The position numbers and the translations under genes were made by a program. Positions 11,583 to 41,453 of a stretch of DNA of 64,000 bases are shown in pieces. Source of the DNA: an uncultured Eubacteriales bacterium (lineage in GTDB: Bacteria > Bacillota > Clostridia > TANB77 > CAG-508); NCBI GenBank assembly GCA_949288095.1, contig CASEIX010000012.1, forward strand, positions 5,570 to 69,569. The letters run 5' to 3'. The notes under the pieces were generated by a model. The model ran no database searches and was not told the DNA's origin. It saw nothing but the letters and a program-made list of their open reading frames with translations. Position 1 is the first letter of the stretch, and the number at the start of each line of letters is the position of its first letter.

Positions 11583-12671
11583 TTATTTTTCGAATTTTCC
11601 CATAATTTTGATAAACTTATCAAACAAATACCCACTATCTTGTGGTCCTGGTGCACTTTCAGGGTGATATTGCACACTAAACACTTTATCTTTCTTACAT
11701 TCAACACCTTCAATCGTATTATCCAAAATATTTTTATGTGTTGGTACTAAATCTGTTTTTTCTAAAGATTTTTCATCTACTGCATAACTATGGTTTTGAC
11801 TTGTAATTTCTATTTTATCTGTTTCTAAATTTAATACTGGATGGTTTCCACCTCTATGTCCAAATTTTAATTTATATGTTTTTGCACCATATGCTAAACT
11901 AATCATTTGATGTCCTAAGCAAATTCCAAAGATTGGATATTTTCCTCTTAATTCTTTTACAAGTTTAATAACTTCTTTTACATCTTCTGGATCACCTGGT
12001 CCATTTGATAAAAAGACTCCATCTGGCTTTAGACTTTCAATTTCTTTTGCTGTTGTATTATATGGTACAATTGTTACATTACAACCTCTTTTATTTAAAC
12101 TTCTGATAATATTTAACTTAATACCACAATCTACAGCTACCACATTATATTTGTAATTTGCTGTTCTAGAATACCATTTCTTTTTACAACTTACTTTTGA
12201 TACAGCATCTTTTGGAATATCATATGCATTCAATTTTTTTAATGCTTCTTCTTTACTAGTTGTAATGTCTGTGATAATAACCTTTCTACTTCCTTTATTT
12301 CTGATACTTCTTGTTAATTTTCTTGTATCAACACCTGAAATTCCTGGTATATCATTTTCTTCTAAATATTCTGATAATGTTTTAGTGTAACGGAAATTAC
12401 TTGGTAAATCATTATATTCTCTTACCACCATTCCACCAATCGTTGGTTGTTTGGTTTCATAATCTTCATCTGTGATTCCATAGTTTCCGATTAATGGATA
12501 TGTCATCACTACCATTTGATAAGTATATGATGGGTCTGAAACGATTTCTTGATATCCTACCATTGAGGTGTTAAATACAATTTCACAAATGGCTTCTTTG
12601 TCTGCCCCAAATCCATATCCTAAATATTCTTCTCCATCTTCTAGTACAATTTTTTTGTTGAATTCTTTCAT
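11583..12671 (-). CDS. carA: carbamoyl-phosphate synthase small (glutaminase) subunit
   Basis: GATase active site GICLGHQ, and HPE near the C-terminus; ATG 12671 preceded by GGAGG. Confidence 0.95.
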   Translation of the reverse strand: MKEFNKKIVLEDGEEYLGYGFGADKEAICEIVFNTSMVGYQEIVSDPSYTYQMVVMTYPLIGNYGITDEDYETKQPTIGGMVVREYNDLPSNFRYTKTLSEYLEENDIPGISGVDTRKLTRSIRNKGSRKVIITDITTSKEEALKKLNAYDIPKDAVSKVSCKKKWYSRTANYKYNVVAVDCGIKLNIIRSLNKRGCNVTIVPYNTTAKEIESLKPDGVFLSNGPGDPEDVKEVIKLVKELRGKYPIFGICLGHQMISLAYGAKTYKLKFGHRGGNHPVLNLETDKIEITSQNHSYAVDEKSLEKTDLVPTHKNILDNTIEGVECKKDKVFSVQYHPESAPGPQDSGYLFDKFIKIMGKFEK

Positions 12672-12748
12672 ATTAACCTCCATTCATATATGTTAAATTT
12701 GTATATATTGTAAATGACAAAAAAAAATAAGGAACAAAAAATCCTTAC

Positions 12749-12832
12749 TTAAAATGCAAATGAAAATAAAGCAACTATTAAGAAAACAGCTGAAATGTTT
12801 ATGCAATTAGTTTTTTTCAAATAGTTTTTCAT
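12749..12832 (-). CDS. possible 27-aa hydrophobic peptide (MKNYLKKTNCINISAVFLIVALFSFAF) immediately upstream of carA
   Basis: GGGAG RBS 6 nt before the ATG; stop followed by a TAAGGA/TCCTTA hairpin and a T9 run (12719-12747). Below the ORF-track size cutoff; found by hand translation. Confidence 0.3.
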   Translation of the reverse strand: MKNYLKKTNCINISAVFLIVALFSFAF

Positions 12833-13009
12833 TTTCTTGCTCCCTTTTATATTTTATATCTTTACTATTATACCAGAAACTATATATAGATTGCAACATT
12901 TTTTGTTATTTTTTTACATCTGACTGTTTACTATATTTGACACAATTTTTTAATCAGCATATAATATTGTTGTTGTCTATTAATAATATTTTCAGAAAAG
13001 GAGTTGTTT

Positions 13010-13336
13010 ATGAAAAATTTACTTATCATCACAATTGCTTTACTAGCACTCGTTGTTATCTTAGTTGCTTTGCTAATTTTCAAAGTTACACGGCTTTCAA
13101 AACAGGTCAGCCTGTTATCTCAGCCAATCATACATATAGATGTAGAAGCAGCTAACGTCATTGCCGAGCAATTGGCTAGTATGACACTTGTTGAAACGAA
13201 CAAGTATGATGCCATTTCTGCACAGTCGATTTTCCGTTGGTTTTATGCCGATCATATGTCACACCGGTCGTACTCTTGGAGTCTAATTCAATATGACCCC
13301 TTATTTGCGCCAGAATATCCGCACTCTGAGTATTAA
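13010..13336 (+). CDS. hypothetical membrane-anchored protein; 3' part doubtful
   Basis: AAGGAG RBS then ATG 13010 and an N-terminal TM (LLIITIALLALVVILVALLIF); the 3' 160 nt overlap the convergent ORF 13176-13760. Confidence 0.25.
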   Translation: MKNLLIITIALLALVVILVALLIFKVTRLSKQVSLLSQPIIHIDVEAANVIAEQLASMTLVETNKYDAISAQSIFRWFYADHMSHRSYSWSLIQYDPLFAPEYPHSEY

Positions 13337-13760
13337 TTTTAATGTCACTTTCTCTGTCTATGTCTGGTGTACTAATTTCCACCAGACCATTATTGGTCTT
13401 TATTCTCAGTTCTTCTGGCAGGACATTTTTTATCTTGACATCAGCAGAGCCCGTCCCTATTGAAAGGGATGGAATTGTTGTCGGAATCGCTATCTTCAAT
13501 TCGACTTTTCCTACCACTTTTGTCTCTTGGAATGTAATTATCGACTCATTTTCTCTTTTTTTACTCTTAAGGGTTACTTCGGAACCAGCCTCCCCTTGAA
13601 GCCACATCCGTATCTTATTTGATTGTATTGGCTGTATAGATACCTTTACTTCCTTAGAGATAATAACGAGTCTTTCAACTCCTTTCCCGGAAATCGACCT
13701 TTTGTAGTCTATCCGGTTTTCTTTGTTTTCCAAACTTTCTTTTCCCATAATGTCTTTCAT
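13176..13760 (-). CDS. DUF4097-like (putative adhesin beta-repeat) protein; possibly decayed at its 3' end
   Basis: repetitive beta-strand pattern (VKIKNVLPEELRIKTNNGLVEISTP...DIKINTQSADI) typical of DUF4097; clearly more GC-rich codons than neighbours. Confidence 0.5.
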   Translation of the reverse strand: MKDIMGKESLENKENRIDYKRSISGKGVERLVIISKEVKVSIQPIQSNKIRMWLQGEAGSEVTLKSKKRENESIITFQETKVVGKVELKIAIPTTIPSLSIGTGSADVKIKNVLPEELRIKTNNGLVEISTPDIDRESDIKINTQSADILAQIRGHIELDSKSTTGVTYDRHKTNGKSTVQKWHHTCSFQQVSY

Positions 13761-13875
13761 CCTTTCTTTTATTTAAAATATTTTGGAATCTTTTACTAAA
13801 GGTCATTGCCCATAGCATTGGGTAACATTATACCATAAAATACATTTAAATTCAAGTTTACAGGCTCTTCTGATT

Positions 13876-14205
13876 TTATTCCTCATCTTCTCCATAAATT
13901 TTATCTACTATTGGAAATGCTTTCCAAGCCAAAGGCCAACCACAATAAAATGCTAATTGTGTAATTACTTCTACTATTTCTGTTTTGGTAATTCCATGTG
14001 CTTTTCCCATAGCAATATGAGATTCAAATGGTCCTTCTACAATTCCTTTTCCAAATAAAGCTGCAATGGTTATCATACTTCTATCTCTTGGATTTAATTT
14101 ATCCTCTCTTGACCAGATTTCTCCAAATAATACATCATCATTTAATTCTGCAAATTTTGGAGCTAACTTTCCTAAATTATCTCTCCCTGCTGTTTGTTTT
14201 TCCAT
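13876..14205 (-). CDS. carboxymuconolactone decarboxylase (CMD/AhpD-like) family protein
   Basis: 109 aa; LNPRDRSMITIAAL...ITKTEIVEVITQLAFYCGWP pattern typical of the CMD family. Confidence 0.8.
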   Translation of the reverse strand: MEKQTAGRDNLGKLAPKFAELNDDVLFGEIWSREDKLNPRDRSMITIAALFGKGIVEGPFESHIAMGKAHGITKTEIVEVITQLAFYCGWPLAWKAFPIVDKIYGEDEE

Positions 14206-14233
14206 AATACATTCCTCCTTAAAATTTATATTT

Positions 14234-14701
14234 TTAATTATTAAAAGCTAATTCTCTAACAATTTTACTTTTTTCACTAGCTGCACCTATTGATAATCCT
14301 TTTAAATCCATTTCCATTAGTTTAGAAAGTCTACCAATAAGGTAAGTAATATTGTCATAACATTCTTGACTTGGACTAGAACCTTGTGCAAAAACATATA
14401 ATTTTTTACCTCTTAATTTTTCAGCCTCTGGTAATAAATATAGTCTATCAATAAATGTTTTTAATATACCTCCTACTGTATACCAATAGATTGGTGCTCC
14501 AATGACTAAAATATCTGCCTTTTCAATTTCCTTGAATATATCTTTTATTTGGTCATCTTCATATACTTGTCCATACTGATATACTTTATAATCGGCCATT
14601 TGTAAAACTTCATGTTCTCTATCTCTTAAAATTTCTTCTCCAATATGAAATGTGTTACCATTTCTATTGGGGCTACTGTTCATAAACAAAATCTTTTCCA
14701 T
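14234..14701 (-). CDS. flavodoxin-like fold NAD(P)H-dependent FMN reductase family protein
   Basis: 155 aa; N-terminus ILFMNSSPNRNGNT and ADILVIGAPIYW motifs. Confidence 0.75.
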   Translation of the reverse strand: MEKILFMNSSPNRNGNTFHIGEEILRDREHEVLQMADYKVYQYGQVYEDDQIKDIFKEIEKADILVIGAPIYWYTVGGILKTFIDRLYLLPEAEKLRGKKLYVFAQGSSPSQECYDNITYLIGRLSKLMEMDLKGLSIGAASEKSKIVRELAFNN

Positions 14702-14746
14702 CTTATTTTCTCCTTTCTTTTATTTTTTGTTTTCATTTAACAATAT

Positions 14747-15844
14747 TTATCTCTCCTCAAAATAATCTGCTATTTCTTTCATTCTATTCATTTGGTCAAC
14801 TTTAAATGGACATCTTGTATTGCAATGACCACATTGAATACAGTCTTTTGCTGTTTTTTCTAAGTTTTTATAATGGTCTTTTGCTAATATATCTCCTGCT
14901 TTTGACAAATCATAATATTTATTGATTAAACCAATATCTAATCCCATAGGACAAGGTTCACAGTGGTTGCAATATACACATTTTCCACTTGCCTCTGGTG
15001 GTGTAAATTCACTGATAATGGAATAATCTTTTTCCTCATCAGTTGCTTTATTAAAATATAAAATTTCTTCTAAATCTTCTTTTCCTCTGATTCCTGGAAG
15101 TACTGTCAAAACGCCTGGTTTGTCTAAGGCATATTGTATACATTGTATTTTTGTAAGTGCTTTTCCAAATGGAGAAGTTCTTTCATCTAATAATTGTCCA
15201 CTAGAAAATGCTTTCATAACAGATATACCAACACCTTCTGCTTCACATCTTCTATATAATTCCATTCTTTCATTAACACTACCATTGGCGTATGCACCTT
15301 GTTCATAATCATATGCTGGATTAATACTAAACATCACCATGTCAATTAATCCTGTATCTAATGCTTTATGTACTAATTCTGGTGTATGAGAAGAAATTCC
15401 AATATGTTTTACAATTCCTTTTTCTTTTAGTTCTTTAATATACTCTAATATACCATTTTTTTGATATGCATTCCAGTCACTTTCTTCATCTATGCAATGA
15501 ATAAATCCATAATCAATATATTCTGTTCTTAATTGTTCTAATTGCCATGCAATTGATTTTTTTATTTTTTCTAAATTTGTTGTCCAGCCATAACTTCCCG
15601 TTTCATAATTTGCTCCAAAATGAATTTGGTACATAACTTTATCTCTGACATTCTCAAAAGCTTTCCCATAATATGGAAAACATTCTGCATCTCCACCTGC
15701 TAGATCAAAATAATTGATTCCATTATCAAATGCCATTTTTAAAGTTTCAATTCCTTCTTTTTCTCCTGCTTGAGAGATAGAACTAGCACCTAATCCTATA
15801 ATACTAATTTTATCTCCTGTTCTACGATTGATTCGATATTCCAT
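14747..15844 (-). CDS. aldo/keto reductase with C-terminal 2x[4Fe-4S] ferredoxin-type domain
   Basis: AKR N-terminus (RRTGDKISIIGLGAS), cysteine clusters CVYCNHCEPCP and CIQCGHCNTRCP; ATG 15844 preceded by GGAGG. The longer ORF-track start lacks an RBS. Confidence 0.85.
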   Translation of the reverse strand: MEYRINRRTGDKISIIGLGASSISQAGEKEGIETLKMAFDNGINYFDLAGGDAECFPYYGKAFENVRDKVMYQIHFGANYETGSYGWTTNLEKIKKSIAWQLEQLRTEYIDYGFIHCIDEESDWNAYQKNGILEYIKELKEKGIVKHIGISSHTPELVHKALDTGLIDMVMFSINPAYDYEQGAYANGSVNERMELYRRCEAEGVGISVMKAFSSGQLLDERTSPFGKALTKIQCIQYALDKPGVLTVLPGIRGKEDLEEILYFNKATDEEKDYSIISEFTPPEASGKCVYCNHCEPCPMGLDIGLINKYYDLSKAGDILAKDHYKNLEKTAKDCIQCGHCNTRCPFKVDQMNRMKEIADYFEER

Positions 15845-25440: not shown

Positions 25441-25476
25441 ATAAAAATATGATGTGCTCACTTTTACACATCATAT
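25441..25476 (-). terminator. rho-independent terminator after the prepilin-type protein gene
   Basis: stem ATATGATGTG/CACATCATAT followed by a T-tract on the minus strand. Confidence 0.7.
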
Positions 25477-25487
25477 TTCTTATATTT

Positions 25488-26798
25488 TTATTTTAAATTC
25501 CACATTGTTTCTCCATTGTATTCTGTACTTGAACTTGTATCTATGACATTAGATTTTAAAGTTACTATAGGTCGAACTGCACAAGCATCGTTCGTAAACT
25601 CGCGCAAGTTCGAACTAAGACCCCAGCAAAAGTAGTTAGAGTTCGTGTAGCTGCCAACCACACGGCGCACATAGAAGCTGCTGCTGCTTGAACTAGCATC
25701 GATACAACAAGAGGCTAACCAATAATTTCCATTAAATAACATACTTTGTACATCTGTATTTTCTATTTTAGTCTTACTGTAGAGATAATAAGTATATTGT
25801 AAATTTTTTACTCCTGCCAAGCTTGAATTTCCATTTGATGTAGTTATTGTTGGATAATATACATTTGTTGTTGGATTTGTTCTACTTCCATAATTGCTAT
25901 CTAATGTTGTATAGTCTGCTTCTGTAATTCCTGCTTGTTTATTTATATCTTCTATGGTTATACTTCTTGCTCCTGAATCTGTTATTTCTCCTGTTAAATC
26001 TCCATCTAGTGGTCCTCCATAGCTATATTTTGTTACTTGTGATGTATCTGCTCCATATCCATATCCATATATTTTACATATTTCATTTAATTCTTGTTCT
26101 GCATATAAATATCCTATTGCTCCATTCATTGTAAAGTTTTCACCTACATCTGTTGTTATAGGATTTTCTGATATTAATGTTACTGTTCCATTCCCTATAT
26201 CTAATACTCTCCATTTTGTACTTGTTGTTGCAGTGAATTTTTGTCCTCCACCTTCTTCTGTACTTGTATATCCATTCCCATGTTCTGTTCCAGTTCCTGT
26301 TGGTGATGTATATGTTAATTTACTTGCCTCTACTTGGGTTCCACTTTTATCTGATACTGTTGGGTTATAATTTATATAGTCTCCTACTCCAACATATTTT
26401 GATATATCTACATATTCACTTACATTTCCATTTTCATCTATTACATAGCTTCTTCCACTATCTGTATAAGTTACTACAAATGGTGCTGTTTCTGTTTCTG
26501 ATAATGTATAATCTGTTCCTTCTGTTCCTATATAATTAGTAAGTTCTTTATTTAAGTTTGTCCTTGTGATTTCTCCTCCGTTATTTTCTGCTATCGCTCC
26601 TGTTGCTGATAATTTTACTTTTTCTTGTTCATCTCCTATTTCTGTTTGTTCACTTGCTTGGCTCGCCTTTGTTAAAATCCCATTATCTCCTGTTAATGTT
26701 GCTATTGTTACACCTGCTAATATTAACAATACAATAATAGTGATTACCAATGCTATTAATGTGATTCCATTATTTGTTTGTTTTCCTTTGTTTCTCAT
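25488..26798 (-). CDS. prepilin-type N-terminal domain protein with C-terminal lectin-like (DUF1566-like) end
   Basis: MRNKGKQTNNG/ITLIALVITIIVLLILAGV pseudopilin leader and hydrophobic helix; C-terminus NYWLAS...AVRPIV; ATG 26798 follows GGGAG. Confidence 0.75.
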   Translation of the reverse strand: MRNKGKQTNNGITLIALVITIIVLLILAGVTIATLTGDNGILTKASQASEQTEIGDEQEKVKLSATGAIAENNGGEITRTNLNKELTNYIGTEGTDYTLSETETAPFVVTYTDSGRSYVIDENGNVSEYVDISKYVGVGDYINYNPTVSDKSGTQVEASKLTYTSPTGTGTEHGNGYTSTEEGGGQKFTATTSTKWRVLDIGNGTVTLISENPITTDVGENFTMNGAIGYLYAEQELNEICKIYGYGYGADTSQVTKYSYGGPLDGDLTGEITDSGARSITIEDINKQAGITEADYTTLDSNYGSRTNPTTNVYYPTITTSNGNSSLAGVKNLQYTYYLYSKTKIENTDVQSMLFNGNYWLASCCIDASSSSSSFYVRRVVGSYTNSNYFCWGLSSNLREFTNDACAVRPIVTLKSNVIDTSSSTEYNGETMWNLK

Positions 26799-26932
26799 AA
26801 AAATCTCCCTTCTTTTGTTATTAATATTTTTCGTAAATAGTATTTGCACTTTTCTGTTTCCTAAACATCTATATTATATATTTTTAATCTATTTATTGAT
26901 TACTATTTACAATTCAGCTCTCCGATACTTTT

Positions 26933-27850: not shown

Positions 27851-29869
27851 TTATTCAAATAAAGTTCTAATCATTTTGATTAAATAATGGCTTCCTCCCT
27901 CAGTATTATCTTGAACATTTTCTACCATACTGATAACTAATATATCATTCTCTCCTTGATCTGTTGTAAAACAATCAAACCATCCTAATGTTCCACTTTC
28001 ATTATCTTCTTTATCTGTTTTTAATTCTGCTGTTCCTGTTTTTCCTGCAATAGTAACACCATTTACTTTCATGTCATTTGCTGAACCACGTTCCACTACT
28101 TGAATTAAATCTTCTTTTATTGTATTTGCTGCTTCTTCTGAGAAAGCATTTTCAATTAAATATTCTGGCGTCTTATCTTCTTTGTATTCAATGTATGGTT
28201 TTACCATATTTCCATTGTTATAGAAACTTGAGTACATAGATGCCATATGAATTGGGTTTATCAATAAATTTCCTTGACCAAATCCAGTATCTGCTAATTT
28301 TCCATCTGAATTAATTCCATCTTCATTTGCATATTGTGATGTTGCAAGTGATAATGGGAATTCTAACTGTTTATTAAATCCGATTTTATCTAGGCTTTCT
28401 GTAAATTTACTTGTTCCAATTCTTAAAGCTGTTTGTGCAAAATAGATATTGTCTGAATACATTAATCCATTTAATAAATTCTTAGGTCCATTATATGCTG
28501 TTAATGTTGTTACTCTATAATCTCCCCATGAAGAATCTTTTTGCCAACTGGTTCCTGTATATCCAAAGTCTTCATCTGCTGTAATACTTCCTGTTGTTAA
28601 TCCAATCGCACCTGTAATTGCCTTAAAGGTTGAACCTGGACAATACTTTTGAATAAATCTATTATATAAAGGTTTTGCTTCATCATTATTCAAGGCATTC
28701 CATTGATCTGTTGTCATTCCTAATGTAAAATCATTTGAATCAAATGTTGGTGTACTAACTAAAGCTAATAATTCTCCTGTACCTGGTTTCATCACAACAA
28801 ATAATCCTTTGTCATTTTTTAGTTGTTCATATAGTTTTGTTTGAATATCACTATCAATTGTAAGGGTAATATCTTCTCCATCTTTTTGTGCTTGCTGTGC
28901 TAAAGTTTGTACCTCATTTCCATCTGCATCTTCTATATAAATTCTAACACCATCTGTTCCTCTTAATCTATCTTCATAGGCTGCTTCTAATCCAGATTTT
29001 CCAATTAAACTTGTAGAACTATATCCTTTATCTGCATATTTTTCCAATTCTTCTGCATTGATTGCTTGCACATATCCAATTAAATGTCCTGCTTCTTCGC
29101 CTAATGGATAGACTCTTCCTTCTGCATCATTTATCATAATTCCTGGAATTTGTAATAATTGTTCTTTTAATTCCGTGTCATCTTTTGCTACCTTTCTAAT
29201 TGGTACAAATGTATCATCTTTTACATAAGAAGCTGATAAATAATTGTTAATCGTTTCTACTGACACACCTGTTAATTCTGATATTTTACTAATATTTTCT
29301 TCTCGATTATCACCTAATTTTCCTGGCACAATCCCTACTTGTGATATAGTGCCATCATAGGCAAGTTTATTTCCGTTTCTATCTAAGATACTTCCTCTTT
29401 TTCCACTTAATGTTTCTACTCTTACTTTGTAATCTCTTCGTAACTCAGGAAAAATTAAACTTGATGACCATTCTAGTTTATATGTTTTATCCTCTTTTAC
29501 TAAATATGCTTCATTATCAAAACTAATATTTCCTGCTGAAGTTACCATTTCTTCACTATATGATACTTTTTTCTTGTTATTTTCATTGGTTACTTCTTTT
29601 ATATTTATTTTAATATTGCTACTGTCAATTCCTTCATAAATATTTTCGTTTCGTGTTACAAAATCTTCTTGACTAATACTTTCTTTTGATGAACTACTTA
29701 AATATGTATACATCTCTTCATATTTTTTGTCATTAATAGCTGAAAAATATGAATTTAAAACCTCTTCTGGTTTTTCTTTTGGCATGTTCATGATGATGAT
29801 TCCTGCTACGATCGCCACAATTAGTATGACTGCAATGATGATTCCGATAATTACTTTTTTATTTTTCAT
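27851..29869 (-). CDS. class B penicillin-binding protein with NTF2-like MecA_N N-terminal domain
   Basis: STFK, SDN and KTGT motifs; N-terminus YFSAINDKKYEEMYTYLSSSSKESISQEDF typical of the MecA_N domain. Confidence 0.9.
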   Translation of the reverse strand: MKNKKVIIGIIIAVILIVAIVAGIIIMNMPKEKPEEVLNSYFSAINDKKYEEMYTYLSSSSKESISQEDFVTRNENIYEGIDSSNIKINIKEVTNENNKKKVSYSEEMVTSAGNISFDNEAYLVKEDKTYKLEWSSSLIFPELRRDYKVRVETLSGKRGSILDRNGNKLAYDGTISQVGIVPGKLGDNREENISKISELTGVSVETINNYLSASYVKDDTFVPIRKVAKDDTELKEQLLQIPGIMINDAEGRVYPLGEEAGHLIGYVQAINAEELEKYADKGYSSTSLIGKSGLEAAYEDRLRGTDGVRIYIEDADGNEVQTLAQQAQKDGEDITLTIDSDIQTKLYEQLKNDKGLFVVMKPGTGELLALVSTPTFDSNDFTLGMTTDQWNALNNDEAKPLYNRFIQKYCPGSTFKAITGAIGLTTGSITADEDFGYTGTSWQKDSSWGDYRVTTLTAYNGPKNLLNGLMYSDNIYFAQTALRIGTSKFTESLDKIGFNKQLEFPLSLATSQYANEDGINSDGKLADTGFGQGNLLINPIHMASMYSSFYNNGNMVKPYIEYKEDKTPEYLIENAFSEEAANTIKEDLIQVVERGSANDMKVNGVTIAGKTGTAELKTDKEDNESGTLGWFDCFTTDQGENDILVISMVENVQDNTEGGSHYLIKMIRTLFE

Positions 29870-30040
29870 ATTGATTCCTCCTCTTAGGATATCTTTTTAC
29901 TAAAATAGGTTTTTTAAGAATTTACATTGTTTAATGTTGTCCTCCATGCACTAATATATACTAATTCTTCTTCCCATTTCGACATTATTATACCACTTCT
30001 TTCACTTTTTTACAGTAATTTTTTCTAGTTTTATATATTT

Positions 30041-31780
30041 TTAATCATTTAGCGTTTCCATTGCATGTTCATCATAATATGTCGCAAAATCATAATTATG
30101 TCCATACCCTGTGCTTGGATTTATTTCTGCTTTTGAAGATTTAGCACCTGCTAAAATACCTTGATAAGTTGTTTTATTTGTATTAACAACAATACCTCCA
30201 TCAAAACTACATCCTTCTATATTTCCTAATATATGATTTCCAGCAATTCCTCCAATATATAATACATCTTGTTCATATTGGATTGCCGGTTGAATGGTAA
30301 TGCTACCAGTAGATGTACAATTTTTTATTGTTCCTTCTGCACCATTAGGATCTCCATTTATTCCTACAATACCTGCTACAACATTACAACCTGTTAAGTT
30401 TCCTTCATTTACACAATTTTCTATTGTTACATAATAATTATATATAGCAATACCGGCTACCATACCATTTTCTGATGTGATGTTTCCACTATTTTTACAA
30501 TTTATGATATTACTTTGATTATATGTTACCATTCCACTTCCTACATTGGTTGCCGTAATATTTCCCGTATTCGTACAATTTGATAAGGTTCCTACATATT
30601 CCATACAAATACCATTTACATTAGAGCCTGTTAGATTTCCTTCATTTGTACAGTTTTCTATAATTCCACCTGCTCTATATGCCGTTATTCCTCCAATAGT
30701 TCCTGATGTACAAGTAATATTGACTCTATTTACACAATTACGAATAGATCCATCATATAAATTACCTACAATTCCTCCTATAAAGTTTATACTATTATCT
30801 GATTGTATATTAATATTTCCACTAGTTGTACAATTATCAATTGTACCATAATTTATTTTTGCAAATATACCTTCTTGATAATTGATTTCTTCATTATCTG
30901 CTATGATATTTACATTTATATTTTCTACATTTAAATTTTTAATGGTTCCTCGATTCATATAAAACATAGAAAAATGAGTAATTTGTTCTATTTCATTAAC
31001 ACCAGGATTTATAATCGAATGACCATTTCCATCTAATTCTCCAGTAAATATTATCGAATTTAATCTTATAGGTCCTCCTCTGAAATCAAGGTCATTGGCT
31101 AATTTATATTTTCCTGAAGGATTACTAGCAATTTTTCTAAAATCATCGATTGTATAGATTCTTGTATATCCATCATTTATATCCTCTTGTACTTGCGTGT
31201 CTTCTACTATTGCATCATTTATAGAAAATCCTGATTTTCCTAACATTTCTTCTAATTCTTCCATGGTATATCGTTTCATAAATTGTGTTACGTATTTAAA
31301 TAATCTGGCACATCTGTTATCATCTAGCAATTTATATACAACAGGTCTAGGAATCGTTCCATCATCCACAGCTATATTGCCATACTTTTCTTTGTCATAA
31401 TCTAAAATAATATAGTTCTTACCTGATGACATAATTCTATCCATAGAATCTACATTGAAATCATCTGTTAGTGGTGTCATTAAGCTATAACTCATTCTAT
31501 CTTCTGCTACTTCTAACAAATGGGCATAATTTTCGTCATTTTTATCGATAACATAGAAATAATCTTTCATTTTCGGTTTATAGATAATTCTATCTGGATT
31601 GCCTGTATAGTAGCTTAAACTTTCCCCTAATTTTAGATATTCATTTCCATATTCTGCTTCTTCTTGGTCTATCACTTTTTTTTGATAATCTCTATCTAAT
31701 TTGATTAATATAGCAATTCCAGCTAAAACGATTAAGATAACAACCAATGGTATGATAATATATCTCTTTTTAAATTTCAT
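30041..31780 (-). CDS. membrane-anchored beta-helix repeat protein (GLUG-motif-like)
   Basis: N-terminal TM; more than 8 repeats of the GGI.G......I.NC.N.GNI type. Confidence 0.6.
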   Translation of the reverse strand: MKFKKRYIIIPLVVILIVLAGIAILIKLDRDYQKKVIDQEEAEYGNEYLKLGESLSYYTGNPDRIIYKPKMKDYFYVIDKNDENYAHLLEVAEDRMSYSLMTPLTDDFNVDSMDRIMSSGKNYIILDYDKEKYGNIAVDDGTIPRPVVYKLLDDNRCARLFKYVTQFMKRYTMEELEEMLGKSGFSINDAIVEDTQVQEDINDGYTRIYTIDDFRKIASNPSGKYKLANDLDFRGGPIRLNSIIFTGELDGNGHSIINPGVNEIEQITHFSMFYMNRGTIKNLNVENINVNIIADNEEINYQEGIFAKINYGTIDNCTTSGNINIQSDNSINFIGGIVGNLYDGSIRNCVNRVNITCTSGTIGGITAYRAGGIIENCTNEGNLTGSNVNGICMEYVGTLSNCTNTGNITATNVGSGMVTYNQSNIINCKNSGNITSENGMVAGIAIYNYYVTIENCVNEGNLTGCNVVAGIVGINGDPNGAEGTIKNCTSTGSITIQPAIQYEQDVLYIGGIAGNHILGNIEGCSFDGGIVVNTNKTTYQGILAGAKSSKAEINPSTGYGHNYDFATYYDEHAMETLND

Positions 31781-31930
31781 TTTTATCTTTCATATAATAT
31801 AGTATTATATGCCTTTCTCATTTATTATCTTTTATTTTTTGTTTTATCACTTTTAAACTTTCATCTATTTTTAATCTAATCACTCTAGTTTTTGGCTATT
31901 ATGATTCCAAATTTTCTTTCAATCTGTATT

Positions 31931-33502
31931 TCACGATTCCAAATCTTCTTTAAATGGAAAATTATCTGGATTATATGTATATGTTCTTAAATCTACACCA
32001 TATTCTTTTTCCAATTCTTCTCTTGTATATTTTTTCTCATAAATCATACTTGAATCATAATCACTTTCATTGACAATCACTTCTACAGCATGTAAATTAT
32101 CAATTAAGCTTAATAATGTGACTGCATTTTTCTTAAATAATTCTTCTTTCTTTTCTAAAGGTAATTCTTTAAATGCTTCAAATTCTCTATTCTTTTCTTC
32201 TACTATGTAATTGGTATAATAATGAATTTCTAGATAATATTGTTCTGGATTTTCTTCTTCGCTTCTTGTAAAAATAGATTGTGCATAATTTCCTAAGCTT
32301 AGTTTTTGGACAAGATTTTTAACACTGTTAAAATCTCCTACATATTGCATTTTATAAGGAATCATATCTTCATAATCATATGCAAAATAGTTTTCTTCTA
32401 CTTTTGCAATATTACCTATAAAAAAGATTCCACCAATTATGACAATGAGTGTTAGTGATATCATAGTAATTCGAATTGGTTTTGCTTTAAATTTAGGGAA
32501 GAATTTTATCATGTAAATTCTTCTTTCTGTATCATTTTCTACTCCTGCTAAATTTAATACTTCCTGTTCATAACTTTTGTATAATCTATCTCTTAAGGCA
32601 TTAATAATTGTCATCGCATATTCTTTGTTTTCTTCTGGTTTCAAATGTTTTAATACATTGGCATCTGCTTTTAATTCCATATCTTGTCTCATTCTTTTAA
32701 ATAAAATATATAAAAATGGATTAAACCAATAAATTGTTCTTAATATATTTAATACAAAATTCATTACCAAGTCTTTTCCTTTGTAATGTGATAATTCATG
32801 CATAAATATATATTTGATTTCTTTATCCGTTTTCTCATTTACATTATCCTCATCCAAAAATATTTTGGTATCTATTATTCCATATATAGCAGGTGATAAA
32901 ATTCCTTTTTGGTTAATTAATACAATATCTTTTTTTATATTTAATTCTTTTTTCGTTTCTTCAAAAATTTCTAAAATCCTTTTATTTGTCAATAAATCAC
33001 TTACTCTTAATCGATTTATTTTTCTTCTTAACCATAAATATCTTATCATTAAAATGCCTATCATCCCTATCCAAAGACAAGGAAGCACTATATCAAATGC
33101 AATATATTTCGCATAAGCCATGTAGAGATTTCCTCTTACTACTTTATATTCTTCAAATGTGGTATCTTGTCTTTGAATATATGTATTATATTCTGCTTGT
33201 CTTTCATCTACTTCTTGTTTAAAAGATATTTCTTGAATTGGATTTAGGATTTTCATAAAAATATTATTGCTTTCATATACTCCATTGATATTCAATGGTA
33301 CAATTAAGGAAATTATGAAAATTCCCCACATGATGACTTTCCATTTTGGTGAAATCTTTTTATCAAATATTTCTTGAATTAAATATATGGTAAATCCTAC
33401 AATCACTGCAAATATGGACATATATAAAATCATATAAAATGCTTCTCTGATTTGGATTCTATCAATCACAATATTAACATATCTAAATAATGTTTCTATC
33501 AT
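31931..33502 (-). CDS. BlaR1/MecR1-family M56 metallopeptidase signal transducer without a PBP-like sensor domain
   Basis: multi-TM N-terminus, HELSHY zinc motif; the C-terminal about 170 aa show no SxxK or KTG motifs. Confidence 0.8.
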   Translation of the reverse strand: MIETLFRYVNIVIDRIQIREAFYMILYMSIFAVIVGFTIYLIQEIFDKKISPKWKVIMWGIFIISLIVPLNINGVYESNNIFMKILNPIQEISFKQEVDERQAEYNTYIQRQDTTFEEYKVVRGNLYMAYAKYIAFDIVLPCLWIGMIGILMIRYLWLRRKINRLRVSDLLTNKRILEIFEETKKELNIKKDIVLINQKGILSPAIYGIIDTKIFLDEDNVNEKTDKEIKYIFMHELSHYKGKDLVMNFVLNILRTIYWFNPFLYILFKRMRQDMELKADANVLKHLKPEENKEYAMTIINALRDRLYKSYEQEVLNLAGVENDTERRIYMIKFFPKFKAKPIRITMISLTLIVIIGGIFFIGNIAKVEENYFAYDYEDMIPYKMQYVGDFNSVKNLVQKLSLGNYAQSIFTRSEEENPEQYYLEIHYYTNYIVEEKNREFEAFKELPLEKKEELFKKNAVTLLSLIDNLHAVEVIVNESDYDSSMIYEKKYTREELEKEYGVDLRTYTYNPDNFPFKEDLES

Positions 33503-33508
33503 ATTTAT

Positions 33509-33883
33509 TTATTCCCTTTCATCGATGATGTTTAATAATTTTTCTATTTCTTCTTTCGTTATTTTTTTATCTTCTACAAAGTTTAATAACATATTATTGA
33601 CATTTCCATCATACATCTTCTCTAAAAAAGTTTCATTTGCACTTTTTAAATATTTCTTTTCTGAAATTAATGGTTTGTATTCATTCTCCTTTTTATTTTT
33701 TTCAACAGACTTCACGATATTTTTATCTATTAATCTATATAACAATGTTTTGATTGTACTTTTATTCTTTGGTTCCTCTTTACTTAATTCTTCAACCAGT
33801 TCATTTAAGGTTAGACTTTTCTTTTCCCATAATACTTTCATAATTTCTAATTCTGCATCTGTAATTTGATCTGTTATTTTCAT
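33509..33883 (-). CDS. BlaI/MecI/CopY-family transcriptional repressor
   Basis: winged-helix N-terminus ITDAELEIMKVLWEK...TIKTLLYRLIDK; ATG 33883 follows AGGAGG. Confidence 0.9.
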   Translation of the reverse strand: MKITDQITDAELEIMKVLWEKKSLTLNELVEELSKEEPKNKSTIKTLLYRLIDKNIVKSVEKNKKENEYKPLISEKKYLKSANETFLEKMYDGNVNNMLLNFVEDKKITKEEIEKLLNIIDERE

Positions 33884-36380: not shown

Positions 36381-36941
36381 TTGAAATTATTATTTAAAAA
36401 TACAACTACATATTCCAAACATATATATGATGATTTTTTAAAATTTCACACGAAAAAATTCTCATTTAAATATCATCTATTTTCACTTGTTATATCTATG
36501 CTAATTCTTTTTTTGATTATGCTATATGTTCAAAATCATTATTATGGATTAGCGGTTATTTTTTGTGCTTGTTTGACTTCTTTTATTTTATATAGATATT
36601 TTCATCCGATTGAAGAAGTAAATAAAGAATATCACAGTAACAAAATTACCAAAGAGCAAAGTTTTACATTTTCATTTTACAACAATTATTTTAAAGTATT
36701 CACTAAAAGAGAATATTCTGTTATTTATTATCGCGAACTTTATAAAATATTTGAAACAGATACTTTCTTTTATCTATATTTAGATAATAGACATTCTCTT
36801 TTATTAGATAAATCTGGATTTAAAAAAGGAACTCCTATCACTTTTAGAGATTTTATTAAGAAAAAATGTCCTTTCAAATATAAATTAGATAAAATAGATA
36901 ACCAAAAAAAGGAAACAAAAAAACGAAAACACAGTTTATGA
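36381..36941 (+). CDS. YcxB-like membrane protein (hypothetical)
   Basis: 186 aa; two central TM helices then a soluble C-terminal half, resembling the YcxB family layout. Confidence 0.45.
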   Translation: MKLLFKNTTTYSKHIYDDFLKFHTKKFSFKYHLFSLVISMLILFLIMLYVQNHYYGLAVIFCACLTSFILYRYFHPIEEVNKEYHSNKITKEQSFTFSFYNNYFKVFTKREYSVIYYRELYKIFETDTFFYLYLDNRHSLLLDKSGFKKGTPITFRDFIKKKCPFKYKLDKIDNQKKETKKRKHSL

Positions 36942-36965
36942 TTTTCATAAAAACTGTGTTTTTTA
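36926..36965. terminator. bidirectional terminator between the YcxB-like gene and hisS
   Basis: stem AAAACACAGTTT/AAACTGTGTTTT with a T-run; encloses the plus-strand stop codon. Confidence 0.65.
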
Positions 36966-36973
36966 TATCTGTA

Positions 36974-38296
36974 TTATTTTTTCTTTTCTATTACTTCTTT
37001 TATTTTTTCCTCATCCATAGGTAACTTTTCTTCATTTCCTGTTTTCATGTCTTTTAATGTAATTTCTTTTGCCTTAATTTCATCCTCACCTAATACAATC
37101 ACATATGGAATCTCTAATTTATCTGCATATTTAAATTTTGCTTTTAATTTTTTGTTGTTTAAGTAAATCTCTGTATTAATGCCAATATTTCTTAATTTAG
37201 TTGCTAGTTTTATTGGTTCTTCTAAATTTTCCACCATAGGAATAATTAAAATATCTGCCACAGATTTTCTATCTGCTTTGACAATGTTTAATTCATTTAA
37301 TTTATAAAATAATCTTGTTAATCCTATAGAAACGCCAACACCTGGTAGACTTTTCTCTGTATAATATTCTGCCAAGTTCTCATATCTTCCTCCAGAACAT
37401 ACACTTCCAATTTCTCTGTAATCATTTAAAAATGTTTCATAAACCGTTCCTGTATAATAGTCTAATCCTCTTGCAATAGTTAAGTCTACTTTAAAGTTCG
37501 CATCTGGAACACCAAATACTCTTACATTTTTGACAACTGTTTTTAATTCTTCTACCCCTCTTAAATACGTTTCATTTTGGATTCCTAAGTTTTCTAGTTT
37601 TTCTATTTTTTCATCAGAAGTTCCTTCGATTTCTATAAAGTTAATAATATTGTTTATTTGTTTTTCTTGTAATCCTAATTTTTTAAACTCTTCTATAACA
37701 GCTTCTTTTCCTATTTTTTCAATTTTATCAATAATTCTTAATATCTCTACTGCATTTTCCTTTTGTTCAACACTTTCAAATAGCCCATTTAAAATTCTTC
37801 TGTTATTTATTTTTATCGTAAAATCTTCAAATCCTAATTCTCTAAACATAGTATAAATGATTGCAGGAATTTCGGCATCATTGATTAAGTCTAATTCTCC
37901 ATCTCCAATAATATCGATATCACATTGATAAAATTCTCTATATCTTCCTTTTTGCGCTCTTTCTCCTCTATACACTTTTCCAATTTGATATCTTCTAAAT
38001 GGAAAACTTAAATTTCCATAATTTTTTGCCACATATTTTGCAAGTGGTACAGTTAGATCAAAACGTAATGCTAAATCTGTATCCCCTTTTTGGAAACGAT
38101 AAATTTGTTTTTCTGTTTCTCCTCCAGCTTTTGCAAGTAATACTTCTGCAAGTTCGATTACTGGTGTATCTAATGGTAAAAATCCAAACTTTTTATATGT
38201 TTTCTCTATTTTTTCTTTCATTTGATTAAATAAAATTTGTTCATTTGGTAATAATTCCATAAATCCAGCCAATGTTCTTGGTTCTACTTTTTCCAT
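36974..38296 (-). CDS. hisS: histidine--tRNA ligase
   Basis: class II motifs (YRGERAQKGRYREFYQCD; GGRYENL), 440 aa. Confidence 0.93.
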   Translation of the reverse strand: MEKVEPRTLAGFMELLPNEQILFNQMKEKIEKTYKKFGFLPLDTPVIELAEVLLAKAGGETEKQIYRFQKGDTDLALRFDLTVPLAKYVAKNYGNLSFPFRRYQIGKVYRGERAQKGRYREFYQCDIDIIGDGELDLINDAEIPAIIYTMFRELGFEDFTIKINNRRILNGLFESVEQKENAVEILRIIDKIEKIGKEAVIEEFKKLGLQEKQINNIINFIEIEGTSDEKIEKLENLGIQNETYLRGVEELKTVVKNVRVFGVPDANFKVDLTIARGLDYYTGTVYETFLNDYREIGSVCSGGRYENLAEYYTEKSLPGVGVSIGLTRLFYKLNELNIVKADRKSVADILIIPMVENLEEPIKLATKLRNIGINTEIYLNNKKLKAKFKYADKLEIPYVIVLGEDEIKAKEITLKDMKTGNEEKLPMDEEKIKEVIEKKK

Positions 38297-38385
38297 ATAT
38301 TCTCTCTCCTATTTTCTTAATATACGCTAAATATATCTATTTAGCTTTTTTCTGCTTTCTAGTATACTACATAATTTGTTAACTT

Positions 38386-39033
38386 TCAATACAATTTTGG
38401 TCTCAATTCCAAATATATAGGCTTTTCTTCCTTTATCATTGTCGCTTTTCCATGTCCTGGATAAACAATGGTATCATCTGGAAGTTTTAACAATTTATTG
38501 GTTATGGAATCCATAATATCTTCTATACTTCCTGTTGGTAAATCTGTTCTTCCCCATGTACCACGAAACATCGTATCTCCTGAAAACACACATCCTTCTT
38601 TTTCACAATATAGACTAGTTGAGCCTTTTGTATGTCCTGGAGTATGGATAACTTTCAATTCTAATTCTCCTAAATGTATTAAATCATTATCATCAATTCT
38701 TGAATCTGCTTCTAATTCTATTGGTGGTAAATCAATTATTGCCGAAAGATTAATACTCAAATTATTCAATCCCTCACTATCAAATCGATGAATTAGTACC
38801 TTTCCACCACATTGATTTTTTAGTTCTGTTACTCCTGCTATATGATCTCCATGGCAATGTGTAAGATAAATATATTTTAGGTTTCCATTTAAAATATGAA
38901 GCATTTCTACAATTTTATCAACATCCCCTGCTGGATCTATTACCAGAGTTTCCTTACTTTCTTCATCAAAGATAATATAGCAATTCGTTGGATCTCCTAT
39001 CCATGTATTAATCTTTCGTTTTTTTAAAATCAT
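38386..39033 (-). CDS. MBL-fold metallo-hydrolase
   Basis: THCHGDH motif; ATG 39033 follows GGAGG. The longer ORF-track start lies inside the structured repeat. Confidence 0.85.
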   Translation of the reverse strand: MILKKRKINTWIGDPTNCYIIFDEESKETLVIDPAGDVDKIVEMLHILNGNLKYIYLTHCHGDHIAGVTELKNQCGGKVLIHRFDSEGLNNLSINLSAIIDLPPIELEADSRIDDNDLIHLGELELKVIHTPGHTKGSTSLYCEKEGCVFSGDTMFRGTWGRTDLPTGSIEDIMDSITNKLLKLPDDTIVYPGHGKATMIKEEKPIYLELRPKLY

Positions 39034-39046
39034 GCTTCCTCCTTTA

Positions 39047-39208
39047 GTCTTTTCGGGACGTGTCGAATTGGACACTTTTCATCCAAAAGGGACACATCCC
39101 ATAATTCAATTCTATTATTTTTAAAATTCAAGTCTGTCCCTTTTGTTTCATTTTGAAACATTGGGGACGGGTTAAATCGTTTCAAAATGGAACGATTTGG
39201 CACGTCCC
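39047..39208. repeat. GGGAC-rich structured intergenic element, copy 2 (extended)
   Basis: outer inverted repeat GGGACGTG (39055-39062) / CACGTCCC (39201-39208); internal hairpins at 39089-39100, 39136-39168 and 39174-39198; the first 33 nt are related to 5353-5387. Confidence 0.65.
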
Positions 39209-39215
39209 TATCGTA

Positions 39216-41414
39216 TCATTTCTTTCTTTTTACATCATAAACACTGTTTACTTTTCTAACAACTTTTTGTGCTTTATTTAGTTCATTTAAGTTTTCTACT
39301 TCAAGAGTGATGTCAATAATTGCAATTCTTTCTTTTGTTGTTTTTGTATTAACTCCTAAGATATTTACTTTTGTGGTTCCTAATTCTTTTAAGATGTCTA
39401 CTAATAGTCCTGTTCTATCATTTGAGAAGATTTCGATTTCTGCTTGATATTCTGATTTTTCTTCTTCATACCATTCGACATCTATCATTCTGTTTTCTTC
39501 TGATATTAAGTCTTTTACATTATGACAGTCTTTTCTGTGAACAGATACACCTCTTCCTTTTGTGATATATCCTACGATTTCATCTCCTGGAAGTGGATTA
39601 CAACATTTTGAAAGTTTTACTAAACAGTTGTCTATTCCTTTTACGATAACCCCTGAACTTGATGGCTTTGGTTTCTTCTGTTTTGCTTTTTTTAGTTCTT
39701 CTAATTTCTTCTCAATATCTTCTTCTTCATGTTCTTTTCTGTATTCTTGAAGCATTCTAGCAATCACTTTTACTGATGAATTTGCTCCAAATCCAACAGC
39801 AGCATACATCTCATCTAAGTTCTTATATTTATACTTTTCAAGCATTGGATCAATATACTCTGTTTTAAATAAATCAGCATGTGTAAATCCTATTCTTTTT
39901 AATTCTTTTTCAATTAAGTCTTTTCCTTTTTCAATATTTTCTTCTTTTTGTGCTTTCTTAAACCAGCTTTTGATTTTATTTCTTGCTGCTGAACTTTTTA
40001 CAAATTTTAGCCAGTCTCTACTTGGTCCTTTGGAATTATCTGATGTGATAATTTCTACAATATCCCCACTTTGTAATGGTGTGATAATAGGCATCATTTT
40101 ACTATTTATTTTACATCCTGTCATCTTGTTTCCAATTTCGGCATGTATTGTATAAGCAAAGTCAATTGGTGTTGCTCCTCTTGGCAATACTTTGATTGCT
40201 CCTTTTGGTGTAAATACATATACTTCATCTTCAAATAATTCGGTTTTTAATGTATTTAAAAATTCTTGTGGATCTTCTAATTCTTTTTGCCACTCCAAGG
40301 TTTCTCTAAGCCATGCTAATTTGTCTTCTTCTACTTTTACAGATTGTTTTTTTCCAAAATAGCTTGCTTCTTTATATGCCCAGTGTGCAGCAATACCAAA
40401 TTCAGCCACTTTATGCATTTCCCATGTTCTAATTTGTACTTCAAATGGTGTCCCTTTTTCTCCTAACAATGTTGTATGAATAGATTGATACATATTTGGC
40501 TTTGGGACAGCTATGTAGTCTTTAAACCTTCCTGGCATTGGATTATATAATTCATGAACAACACCTAATGCCGCATAACAATCTTTTACTGAGTTGACTA
40601 ATATTCTTAGAGCAAATAAATCATAGATTTGATCTAATGTTTTATTATCTCGTTTCATTTTACGATAAATACTATATAAATGTTTTGCTCTTCCAGTTAC
40701 TTCTGCATCAATTCTTTGCTTTTTTAATGCAACACGAATATCTGCCATAATTTTTTCAATGAATTGTGTTCTTTCTTCTCTCTTTTTATTAATTCCTTCT
40801 ACTAATTCATGATATTCTTCTGGCTCTAAATATTTAAATGCTAAATCTTCTAATTCCCATTTTAAAGAATAAATACCTAACCTATTCGCAAGTGGTGCAT
40901 ATAAATCTCTCGTTTCTTTCGCATTGGCAATTTGTCTGTCTCTTTTTAAATATTTTAAAGTTCTCATATTATGGAGCCTATCAGCTAATTTAATTAGAAT
41001 CACTCTAATATCTTTTCCCATTGCTAAAAACATTTTTCGATAGTCTTCTACTTGTTGTTCTTCTACTGAAGCAAACTGTATATTACTTAATTTCGTTACA
41101 CCTGCTACCATGTCTGCGATTTCGTTTCCAAATTGAGTTCTTAACTCTTTATCTGTTACATCTGTATCTTCCACAATATCATGAAGAAGTGCTGCACAAA
41201 TGGTACTATCATCTAATCCAATATCTGCTAAAATATACGCAACATTAAGAGGGTGAATAATGTATGGTTCACCTGAGCTTCTTTTTTGTCCTTTATGTTT
41301 TTCACTAGCCAATCGATAGGCTCTCATAATCAATTTAATATCTACTCTTCTAGAATGTTCTTTTCTTTTATTAATAACATCCTTAATTGTAATTTCTTTT
41401 TTTTCTTCTTGCAT
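39216..41414 (-). CDS. relA: bifunctional (p)ppGpp synthetase/hydrolase
   Basis: HD hydrolase motif (HDIVEDT), synthetase domain, TGS and ACT regions, 732 aa. Confidence 0.95.
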   Translation of the reverse strand: MQEEKKEITIKDVINKRKEHSRRVDIKLIMRAYRLASEKHKGQKRSSGEPYIIHPLNVAYILADIGLDDSTICAALLHDIVEDTDVTDKELRTQFGNEIADMVAGVTKLSNIQFASVEEQQVEDYRKMFLAMGKDIRVILIKLADRLHNMRTLKYLKRDRQIANAKETRDLYAPLANRLGIYSLKWELEDLAFKYLEPEEYHELVEGINKKREERTQFIEKIMADIRVALKKQRIDAEVTGRAKHLYSIYRKMKRDNKTLDQIYDLFALRILVNSVKDCYAALGVVHELYNPMPGRFKDYIAVPKPNMYQSIHTTLLGEKGTPFEVQIRTWEMHKVAEFGIAAHWAYKEASYFGKKQSVKVEEDKLAWLRETLEWQKELEDPQEFLNTLKTELFEDEVYVFTPKGAIKVLPRGATPIDFAYTIHAEIGNKMTGCKINSKMMPIITPLQSGDIVEIITSDNSKGPSRDWLKFVKSSAARNKIKSWFKKAQKEENIEKGKDLIEKELKRIGFTHADLFKTEYIDPMLEKYKYKNLDEMYAAVGFGANSSVKVIARMLQEYRKEHEEEDIEKKLEELKKAKQKKPKPSSSGVIVKGIDNCLVKLSKCCNPLPGDEIVGYITKGRGVSVHRKDCHNVKDLISEENRMIDVEWYEEEKSEYQAEIEIFSNDRTGLLVDILKELGTTKVNILGVNTKTTKERIAIIDITLEVENLNELNKAQKVVRKVNSVYDVKRKK

Positions 41415-41453
41415 ATATCCACTTCCCTTTTTTTCTTATTTTAATAGTTATTT

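Follow-up and report, generated by a model that had tools for sequence, protein, structure and literature searches.

A G+C-rich patch in a surface-protein gene of a low-G+C gut Clostridia bacterium is very probably the variable region of a remote or orphan diversity-generating retroelement target

Why does a gene of a low-G+C gut bacterium contain, near its 3′ end, a stretch of some 150 nucleotides (nt) whose composition and codon usage look foreign to the rest of the gene? The gene encodes a predicted surface protein and lies in a 64,000-nt stretch of contig CASEIX010000012.1 (assembly GCA_949288095.1, an uncultured Eubacteriales bacterium), referred to here as the window. A first-pass annotation, made from the letters of the window, put the patch forward as a candidate variable region (VR) in a target of a diversity-generating retroelement (DGR), and named a recombination mosaic as the alternative. 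The analyses presented here make it highly probable that the patch is a DGR-target VR, that the gene is either remote from its retroelement cassette or orphaned, and that the present allele is old, inherited unchanged and decaying by point mutation.

The compositional anomaly of the patch is real and far beyond chance. Positions 25571-25720 contain 75 G+C in 150 nt (0.50), compared with 17/60 in the adjoining 25501-25560; both counts reproduce exactly those of the first-pass annotation, and the patch peptide that it gave (ASCCIDASS...ACAVRP) is correct on translation. Whole-window G+C is 28.1%, and segments of 150 nt have a mean of 0.281 (sd 0.050), which places the patch at z = 4.35, a value of 0.50 being attained by only 0.06% of such segments. 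C-ending codons account for 18/49 codons in the patch versus 22/387 outside it (Fisher p = 7e-9, odds ratio 9.6), so the enrichment reported earlier stands, although the original count of 19/49 does not survive a recount. Outside the patch, A/T-ending codons are preferred for Asn, Tyr, Arg and Gly, a choice that shifts to C-ending or CGN codons inside it. Thus, the patch and the remainder of the gene have AAC:AAT ratios of 4:0 and 5:27 and TAC:TAT ratios of 2:1 and 2:25, respectively, and Arg is encoded by CGN in 4/4 cases in the patch and by AGR in 6/6 cases elsewhere. The near rivals in G+C content within the window are the conserved part of a NAPRTase gene, a small open reading frame (ORF) at ~45.2 kb and the gene for an acidic repeat protein; these spots were considered as further VRs and rejected.

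Variation among homologues follows the same boundaries. Protein searches recovered >7,888 homologues, all from metagenomes or metagenome-assembled genomes (MAGs) and none of them named. In alignments of 49, and then 108, of these proteins the flanks are 80-100% conserved, while across residues 367-406 invariant columns alternate with extremely variable ones, the entropy exceeding 3 bits at alternating columns of this stretch and remaining below 1.5 bits in the flanks. The VR consensus is YWLASRCIxTxSSxSxFxVRxVxxSxxxAxxLCxGxSSxLxExxxSxxAVRPIV. NNY codons specify fifteen amino acids, and these make up 95-98% of the residues at the variable columns; N, Y, D and S are the most frequent, whereas K, E, Q, M and W hardly occur. 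Where a column varies to an intermediate degree, its residues are exactly T/A/P/S, as generated from ACN by mutation of the first base, or Y/C/F/S, as generated from TAT by mutation of the second. At the DNA level, three independent VRs differ at codon positions 1 and 2 and retain a fixed C or T at the third. This distribution is the signature of adenine-specific mutagenesis by a DGR; the hypervariability is codon-restricted and confined to the patch stretch, which is one of the checks that the first-pass annotation had set.

The source of such a pattern would be a template repeat (TR). A template 24-mer, AACTTCAATGTGCGCAATGTGAAT, was predicted from three VRs and used in exact-match searches, which returned no match in IMG/VR, one in the GTDB species-representative genomes and two in a metagenome-contig collection; all three matches are DGR cassettes. 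A phage-borne DGR of this kind is unsupported, the predicted 24-mer having no match in IMG/VR. Looser queries of IMG/VR were discarded. A pattern in M/R/W IUPAC code, allowing A at every VR position, retrieved only poly-A/poly-T runs, and anchored patterns were used instead, while the pattern TTCNNTGTGCGCNNTGTGNNTGNC gave six matches, all unrelated chance hits.

The organization of a related cassette is illustrated by locus L030 (contig CALXKC010000009.1, an uncultured Clostridia MAG). On one strand, the C-terminus of a homologue of the window protein is followed by a 169-residue MutS-domain-I protein (PF01624, E = 1.6e-10), a 114-residue bAvd-like protein (PF22296, E = 1.5e-8) and the TR, whereas the converging strand encodes a second MutS_I protein and a reverse transcriptase (RT, an RVT_1 fragment). 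The L030 TR, which is non-coding and lies beside the RT gene, differs from its own VR at 25/151 positions, all of which are TR adenines (p = 2e-14). Relative to the RT of locus L031, the L030 RT (5614-6302, + strand) has lost ~100 residues, including the active-site region, and is split over two frames; this loss seems recent, because the TR/VR pair is still perfectly adenine-specific. L031 has an L030-like layout with an intact 322-residue RT that contains the GxxxSQ motif, and its Avd is recognized both by NCBIfam DivGenRetAVD (E = 4.9e-12) and by the PHROG ‘Avd protein of DGR’ (E = 1.7e-15). RTs adjoin homologous targets at L030-L032 and L036-L038, and RTs of this type gave 2,164 matches at E <= 1e-20.

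The L030 TR aligns by blastn with positions 25570-25719 of the window (76% identity, E = 5.5e-25). Measured against this heterologous TR, the window VR displays mismatches at 26/52 TR adenines and at 11/99 other sites (p = 3e-7). The 50% G+C and the NNC codons of the patch arise because the TR, made up of AAC/AAT, AGC, GTG and CGC codons, is 44% G+C and about half of its adenines have been replaced. As the composition follows from a TR plus adenine replacement, the recombination mosaic offered as an alternative by the first-pass annotation is not needed. Codon-restricted hypervariability, the TR of a related MAG beside Avd, MutS-like and RT genes, and the adenine-biased mismatches together uphold the identification of the patch as a DGR VR. 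The homology to the TR stops at GCAGTTCG(C/A)CC(C/T), and the VR ends 26 codons ahead of the stop codon. By analogy with Bordetella phage BPP-1, the constant 3′ end of the VR presumably acts as the element at which mutagenic homing is initiated (IMH); in the window this end carries two substitutions relative to the TR and most VRs (GTTCGCCCC).

Several observations concern the cassettes themselves. In P0305 the RT is fused to a MutS_I domain (457 residues; PF00078 plus PF01624); three RT-MutS_I fusions were reported by Wu et al. 2018 (PMC5758913). An identical RT, P0190 (66 blocks of the collection), is located at L036, L037 and L038 10001-13901 beside three different target architectures: a 440-residue gene, a 560-residue gene with Big_2 domains, and a 406-residue gene adjacent to a serine recombinase and Mob_Pre. 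Mob_Pre also occurs next to the cassette at L030. A conserved G+C-rich hairpin, TTGCCAAGCGGGCCTTGTGTCCGCAAGGCAA, which may be a terminator or a homing aid, lies just past the stop codon of cassette-linked targets, ahead of the gene for the small MutS-domain-I (MSL) protein, and is absent from the window.

Where, then, is the cassette that would serve the window gene? Blastn with permissive scoring revealed no TR in the window, and an adenine-tolerant sliding scan of the window, L028 and L039 found only the VR itself; as a positive control, the scan was given the L030 VR and returned the corresponding TR, the 25 mismatches between the two all being at adenines. Tblastn queries with the RT, Avd and two MSL proteins of related cassettes matched nothing in the window or in L028/L039, and the Pfam tables for ~42 kb of the contig likewise list no RT. 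These searches covered the window and ~9 kb past its end, ~73 of the 82 kb of the contig, and the ~9 kb beyond the window consists of a polysaccharide-synthesis cluster with no DGR parts. The statement of the first-pass annotation that the window contains no RT, Avd or template repeat thus holds by all three methods. Since RT, Avd, MSL and TR are all missing from the window and the further contig searched, the gene is classified as a predicted remote or orphan DGR target. It stands alone between the gene for a penicillin-binding protein (PBP) and metG, the latter beginning after a 174-nt spacer downstream of the target. The spacer contains an inverted repeat at which a terminator scan made no call, there being too few G-C pairs. 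Alignment with cassette-linked loci disclosed no cassette remnants downstream of the window gene, unlike the situation at L001, and an ‘empty site’ comparison, in which the flanks of L030, L031, L032 and L036 were searched by blastn against the window, revealed no shared flanks. At L001 (the P0022 locus) about 27 first MSL codons occur right after the target stop (11328-11407), and a frameshifted MSL copy is present at 5140-5413; these pieces are clear remnants of lost DGR cassettes. L001 1649-11407 encodes four paralogues with a common pilin-like N-terminus, two of which have VR-type C-termini.

The absence of a cassette raises the question of whether the VR is still being rewritten. The exact window protein is found on three contigs from at least two samples. 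P0001 has a VR identical to that of the window and 5 residue differences elsewhere, and P0122 differs at 1 VR residue and at 23 residues elsewhere. The same VR allele is still recognisable in P0002 (89% identical) and in the P0007 cluster (80% identical), and P0002 and P0007 share an unusual Trp codon, TGG, that an AAT template cannot yield. Between the window and P0007, the nucleotide difference is 15.6% in the VR and 13.3% in the gene upstream of the VR. Seven synonymous changes in this pair of VRs (for example AGC>AGT, GGT>GGG and CGA>CGC) fall at TR C/G/T positions and are thus beyond the reach of a DGR, and changes specific to the window sub-lineage comprise CGC>TGT, GCG>TCT and the terminal GTTCGCCCC>GTTCGACCT. 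The window allele appears static in its lineage, and on these comparisons ordinary mutation is taken to account for the evolution of its VR from a time before the P0002 and P0007 lineages split. In contrast, where a cassette is adjacent (L036-L038), the same RT protein occurs in three samples beside VRs that differ at variable codons.

A different history is indicated for P0003 (L042), the orthologue in a sister strain, which derives from the same study as the window. The order of its locus is the same (target, metG, deacetylase, a 792-residue gene, GH25-LysM and Bro-N), as is the short spacer; no cassette is present, and the alignment with the window runs end to end through the intergenic region. 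P0003 and the window differ at 4.2% of nucleotides outside the VR and at 50/151 (33%) inside it, 34 of these differences being at TR-adenine positions. Against the L030 TR the P0003 VR has only 5 non-adenine mismatches, compared with 10-11, depending on the alignment, for the window. Read most simply, the cassette-less P0003 locus was rewritten in trans by a DGR after its lineage had split from that of the window. The P0003 VR could, however, have been imported by homologous recombination; the gene is visibly mosaic, with 0-1 differences between L042 and the window in the first 400 nt and then 4-7 per 100 nt. P0006 was considered as a further metG-linked orthologue and rejected, as it belongs to a coaE/purL-linked locus without a cassette. 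In the P0089 cluster (P0123-P0136), 2-4 residue differences are confined to the VR with 0-1 elsewhere, a pattern for which weak or incomplete DGR activity and selection acting on point mutations are both conceivable explanations. L043 (GCA_949284125.1, CASDUW010000006.1, 738-2033), in a MAG from the same study, is coaE/purL-linked like L001, has no cassette and carries a different VR; given this second locus type, one genome may hold more than one stand-alone target of the family.

In the model that we favour, a cassette comprising RT, Avd, one or two MSL proteins and a 151-nt TR would give rise to an RNA copy of the TR, which the RT would copy with errors opposite adenines only. Following the BPP-1 paradigm, the cDNA would then take the place of the homologous 151-nt stretch close to the target gene's 3′ end, thereby randomising exposed residues of a C-terminal domain rich in β-hairpins. 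The foreign composition of the patch would be the footprint of the TR, and the window allele would since have decayed through point mutations, some of them in the G/C-rich 3′ end at which homing is expected to begin. Some observations weigh against this interpretation. The 11 non-adenine mismatches to the only close TR could reflect divergence of the TR between lineages or decay of the VR; the adenine test uses the TR of a related MAG, the window itself being from a metagenome contig; the VR-bearing domain matches no C-type-lectin, DUF1566 or FGE-sulfatase model and its Foldseek matches are weak; and stasis was judged on assembled consensus sequences, in which low-frequency population variants would be hidden. 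A rival view is that the gene is an active remote target, whose VR is rewritten in trans by a cassette elsewhere in the genome or on a visiting mobile element, with the assemblies sampling only the dominant allele. Such activity would be in keeping with the different VR at the cassette-less, metG-linked P0003 locus, with the abundance of RTs of this type and with the remote targets documented for other DGRs (PMC5758913). It sits uneasily, however, with the recurrence of the exact protein across samples, the retention of the VR by P0001 and P0122 while the rest of the protein changes, the sharing of the allele by lineages 11-20% diverged in protein with synonymous drift at TR C/G/T positions, and the mutation of the G/C-rich 3′ end; moreover, the VR of P0003 might stem from homologous recombination. 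Active rewriting of the window gene is considered unlikely.

Two further explanations dispense with reverse transcription. Import of the stretch from a higher-GC homologue would account for the abrupt compositional boundary and for the uneven divergence from L042 along the gene. It is nevertheless very improbable, as the boundaries of the patch coincide with those of TR homology, every homologue in the low-GC clade shares the G+C-rich stretch, its non-adenine positions being invariant and its AAY codons randomised, and the donor-like sequence that was found is a non-coding TR beside an RT rather than a gene. No near-identical high-GC coding homologue with matching flanks was detected among >7,800 homologues. 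Diversifying selection, or gene conversion between paralogues, could be entertained on the grounds that surface proteins are often under such selection and that paralogue clusters exist, exemplified by the four L001 genes that share an N-terminus. Selection does not explain why third-position C/T is invariant where positions 1 and 2 are randomised, why the variable columns are almost devoid of K, E, Q, M and W, or why 25/25 TR/VR mismatches beside an RT and Avd are at adenines, and we regard this as the least probable explanation, scarcely to be credited. A broader conjecture extends the favoured model: most chromosomal members (>7,800 clusters at 90% identity) would be stand-alone ‘docking’ VRs, which a less numerous set of RT-Avd-MSL cassettes rewrites in trans only from time to time, with the window gene dormant and the VR scaffold perhaps DUF6273-like or a new fold. 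If true, a visiting element would re-diversify resident adhesins and later decay or leave; we consider this conjecture, taken as a whole, unlikely.

Table 1. Coordinates of the features discussed (window positions unless another locus is named).
Feature	Position	Strand	Basis
Target gene, 436-residue predicted surface protein	25488..26798, including stop	-	ORF list, translation
Prepilin-like hydrophobic helix, residues 9-31, NGITLIALVITIIVLLILAGVTI; putative class III signal/membrane anchor	26706..26774	-	Sub-threshold Pfam N_methyl
Predicted VR, 151 nt homologous to DGR template repeats	25569..25719	-	blastn and TR/VR alignment
Hypervariable core, residues 367-406; alternating codons from TR AAY, ACN and TAT	25581..25700	-	Column entropy
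Constant 3′ end of VR, GCAGTTCGACCT, encoding AVRP; presumed IMH-like element	25569..25580	-	TR/VR alignments
Conserved C-terminal tail, IVTLKSNVIDTSSSTEYNGETMWNLK, untemplated by TR	25491..25568	-	Alignments: TR homology ends before tail
Inverted repeat ATGATGTG...CACATCAT and T-run after stop; possible terminator	25445..25479	-	Read from sequence
Hairpin TTGCCAAGCGGGCCTTGTGTCCGCAAGGCAA	L030 7497-7440; L001 11309-11375; L032 ~1875-1820		
PBP with MecA_N domain	27851-29869	-	
GLUG-repeat protein	30041-31780	-	
BlaR1/Peptidase_M56	31931-33502	-	
BlaI	33509-33883	-	

Three parts can be distinguished in the target protein: a hydrophobic, pilin-like segment at the N-terminus, a central region and the C-terminal VR-bearing domain. 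Although the mechanical ORF spans 25488..26849 (453 residues, GTG start), the true start is taken to be the ATG at 26798 because homologues begin there; exact look-up of the 453-residue form found no record, whereas the 436-residue form is recorded in NCBI (P0121) and on ENA ERZ16268289 scaffold_252. The N-terminal sequence, KGITLIALVITIIVLLILAGVTIATLTG, is similar to a prepilin signal, with KG|ITLIALVITIIVLLILAG at the putative cleavage site and Ala, rather than the usual Glu, at +5 after the Gly. Pfam N_methyl matches the window protein below threshold (E = 0.054, 13.5 bits versus a gathering score of 21.2), as it does 45/49 family members (best E = 4.7e-4), and the PHROG ‘pilin’ yields E = 0.019. 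A family profile searched against the Protein Data Bank (PDB) gave weak matches to type IV pilin N-termini only (E = 0.065-0.5), and AlphaFold2 (AF2) predicts a long helix over residues 10-36. Pfam tables for ~42 kb of the contig (~33 kb of it window) contain no pilus assembly genes (prepilin peptidase, ATPase or platform), window positions 1-15,400 and 36,800-52,400 being sampled in these tables by few ORFs or unannotated. A pilin-like anchor is thus plausible, but not established, and the ‘prepilin-type’ label given in the first-pass annotation is not confirmed, in view of the sub-threshold N_methyl match and the Ala at +5. By analogy with other DGR targets the protein is presumably a ligand-binding adhesin.

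The fold of the VR-bearing domain is less readily assigned. The full-length AF2 model is poor (predicted local distance difference test (pLDDT) 62) and was uninformative in Foldseek searches, and the C-terminal 251 residues were used. In the resulting model (pLDDT 83, predicted template modelling score (pTM) 0.82) the VR forms successive β-hairpins. With this model Foldseek retrieved nothing significant from the PDB, and neither Mtd nor TvpA was matched. Its best matches are DUF6273 proteins (BFVD, probability 0.96-0.98, E = 5e-3 to 8e-3, with TM-scores of only 0.32-0.40), and the best PDB match, 9qa6, has DUF6273 as its N-terminal domain; this weak likeness is suggestive of, but does not prove, a relationship to DUF6273. 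Pfam scans of the window protein and 49 members (E up to 5) revealed no DUF1566, FGE-sulfatase, Mtd or lectin model, Pfam DUF6273 matched 0/49 members, and the VR-bearing region corresponds to no domain in Pfam, NCBIfam or PHROGs. The resemblance to a DUF1566/C-type-lectin-like scaffold suggested in the first-pass annotation therefore remains unconfirmed, the search against DUF1566, CLec and FGE-sulfatase models that it had recommended having matched none of them.

The mechanism of DGRs, their Avd and MSL accessory genes and the existence of remote targets are established (PMC5758913). The prototype, from Bordetella phage BPP-1 (Mtd, bAvd, bRT and TR/VR), shares with the family described here an adenine-specific flow from TR to VR, Avd, an RT with GxxxSQ, and a VR at the C-terminal end of a ligand-binding protein with a constant, G/C-rich 3′ end. 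Unlike in BPP-1, the window has no adjacent cassette, and related cassettes add MutS-domain-I proteins and have the RT convergent to Avd-TR. The target, in addition, is chromosomal with a pilin-like N-terminus rather than a phage tail fibre, and matches no Mtd or C-type-lectin model. MSL accessory genes define DGR ‘Architecture D’, which includes the Legionella DGR (Wu et al. 2018, PMC5758913), and the related cassettes likewise combine small MutS_I-like proteins with Avd. They differ from that architecture in often having two MSL genes, upstream of Avd and of RT, in the single RT-MutS_I fusion (P0305), in their low-GC gut Clostridia hosts and in a VR class that is not DUF1566/CLec2 by hidden Markov model (HMM). 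The DGR of Treponema denticola serves seven remote targets (PMC5758913) and is similar in that the target is far from any cassette and several paralogous targets have one VR type. Here, however, the allele looks frozen, no servicing cassette is known from the same genome, and, unlike in T. denticola, decay of cassettes is visible in relatives (the internal deletion of the L030 RT and the MSL remnants of L001).

DUF6273-type DGR targets have been described in phages of gut Firmicutes, in Faecalibacterium prophages and as tentaclins (PMC11792537, PMC10743442). The window protein resembles these in having a VR at the C-terminal end of the domain, predicted β-hairpins and best Foldseek matches to DUF6273, but it has no Pfam DUF6273 match, its gene is chromosomal and pilin-anchored by prediction, and the predicted TR is absent from IMG/VR. 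In Bacteroides, DGRs diversify type V pilus tip adhesins (bioRxiv 10.1101/2024.11.15.621889), which provides a parallel for a DGR-diversified, pilus-associated adhesin in a gut commensal; the phylum and pilus type are different, however, the pilin-like character is weakly supported here, and no pilus genes occur in the annotated neighbourhood. Surveys of metagenome contigs cannot see remote DGR targets (Roux et al. 2021, PMC8144416). Against this background, the present data add a large unannotated target family in low-GC gut Clostridia, undescribed by Pfam or NCBIfam, to which a mechanism of diversification can be assigned, and a cassette-less member whose DGR origin is readable from composition alone. 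A local compositional anomaly in a low-GC genome can thus expose a DGR target even without its retroelement. Within this one family, the states observed comprise active cassettes, decaying cassettes, and stand-alone VRs that appear either rewritten (P0003) or frozen (the window). For annotation purposes, we suggest naming the gene product a DGR target (variable) protein and marking its VR as orphan or remote.

The surroundings of the target gene display further features of note. Directly upstream of the target is a mecA-like β-lactam sensing/resistance cluster (27851-33883, - strand; Table 1). At 45155-45424 (+ strand) a 67-residue ORF of ~50% G+C lies ahead of a G+C-rich hairpin (45386-45415) and T-run, and has no Rfam match. 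Another G+C-rich spot, at 45556-46464 (- strand), encodes an acidic repeat protein that is rich in Pro/Glu and has a membrane anchor at its C-terminus. This gene overlaps by 11 nt the end of the gene upstream of it (45556-49123 for the pair, - strand), which encodes an 889-residue Peptidase_M60 (enhancin-like) protein with a surface Ig-like domain.

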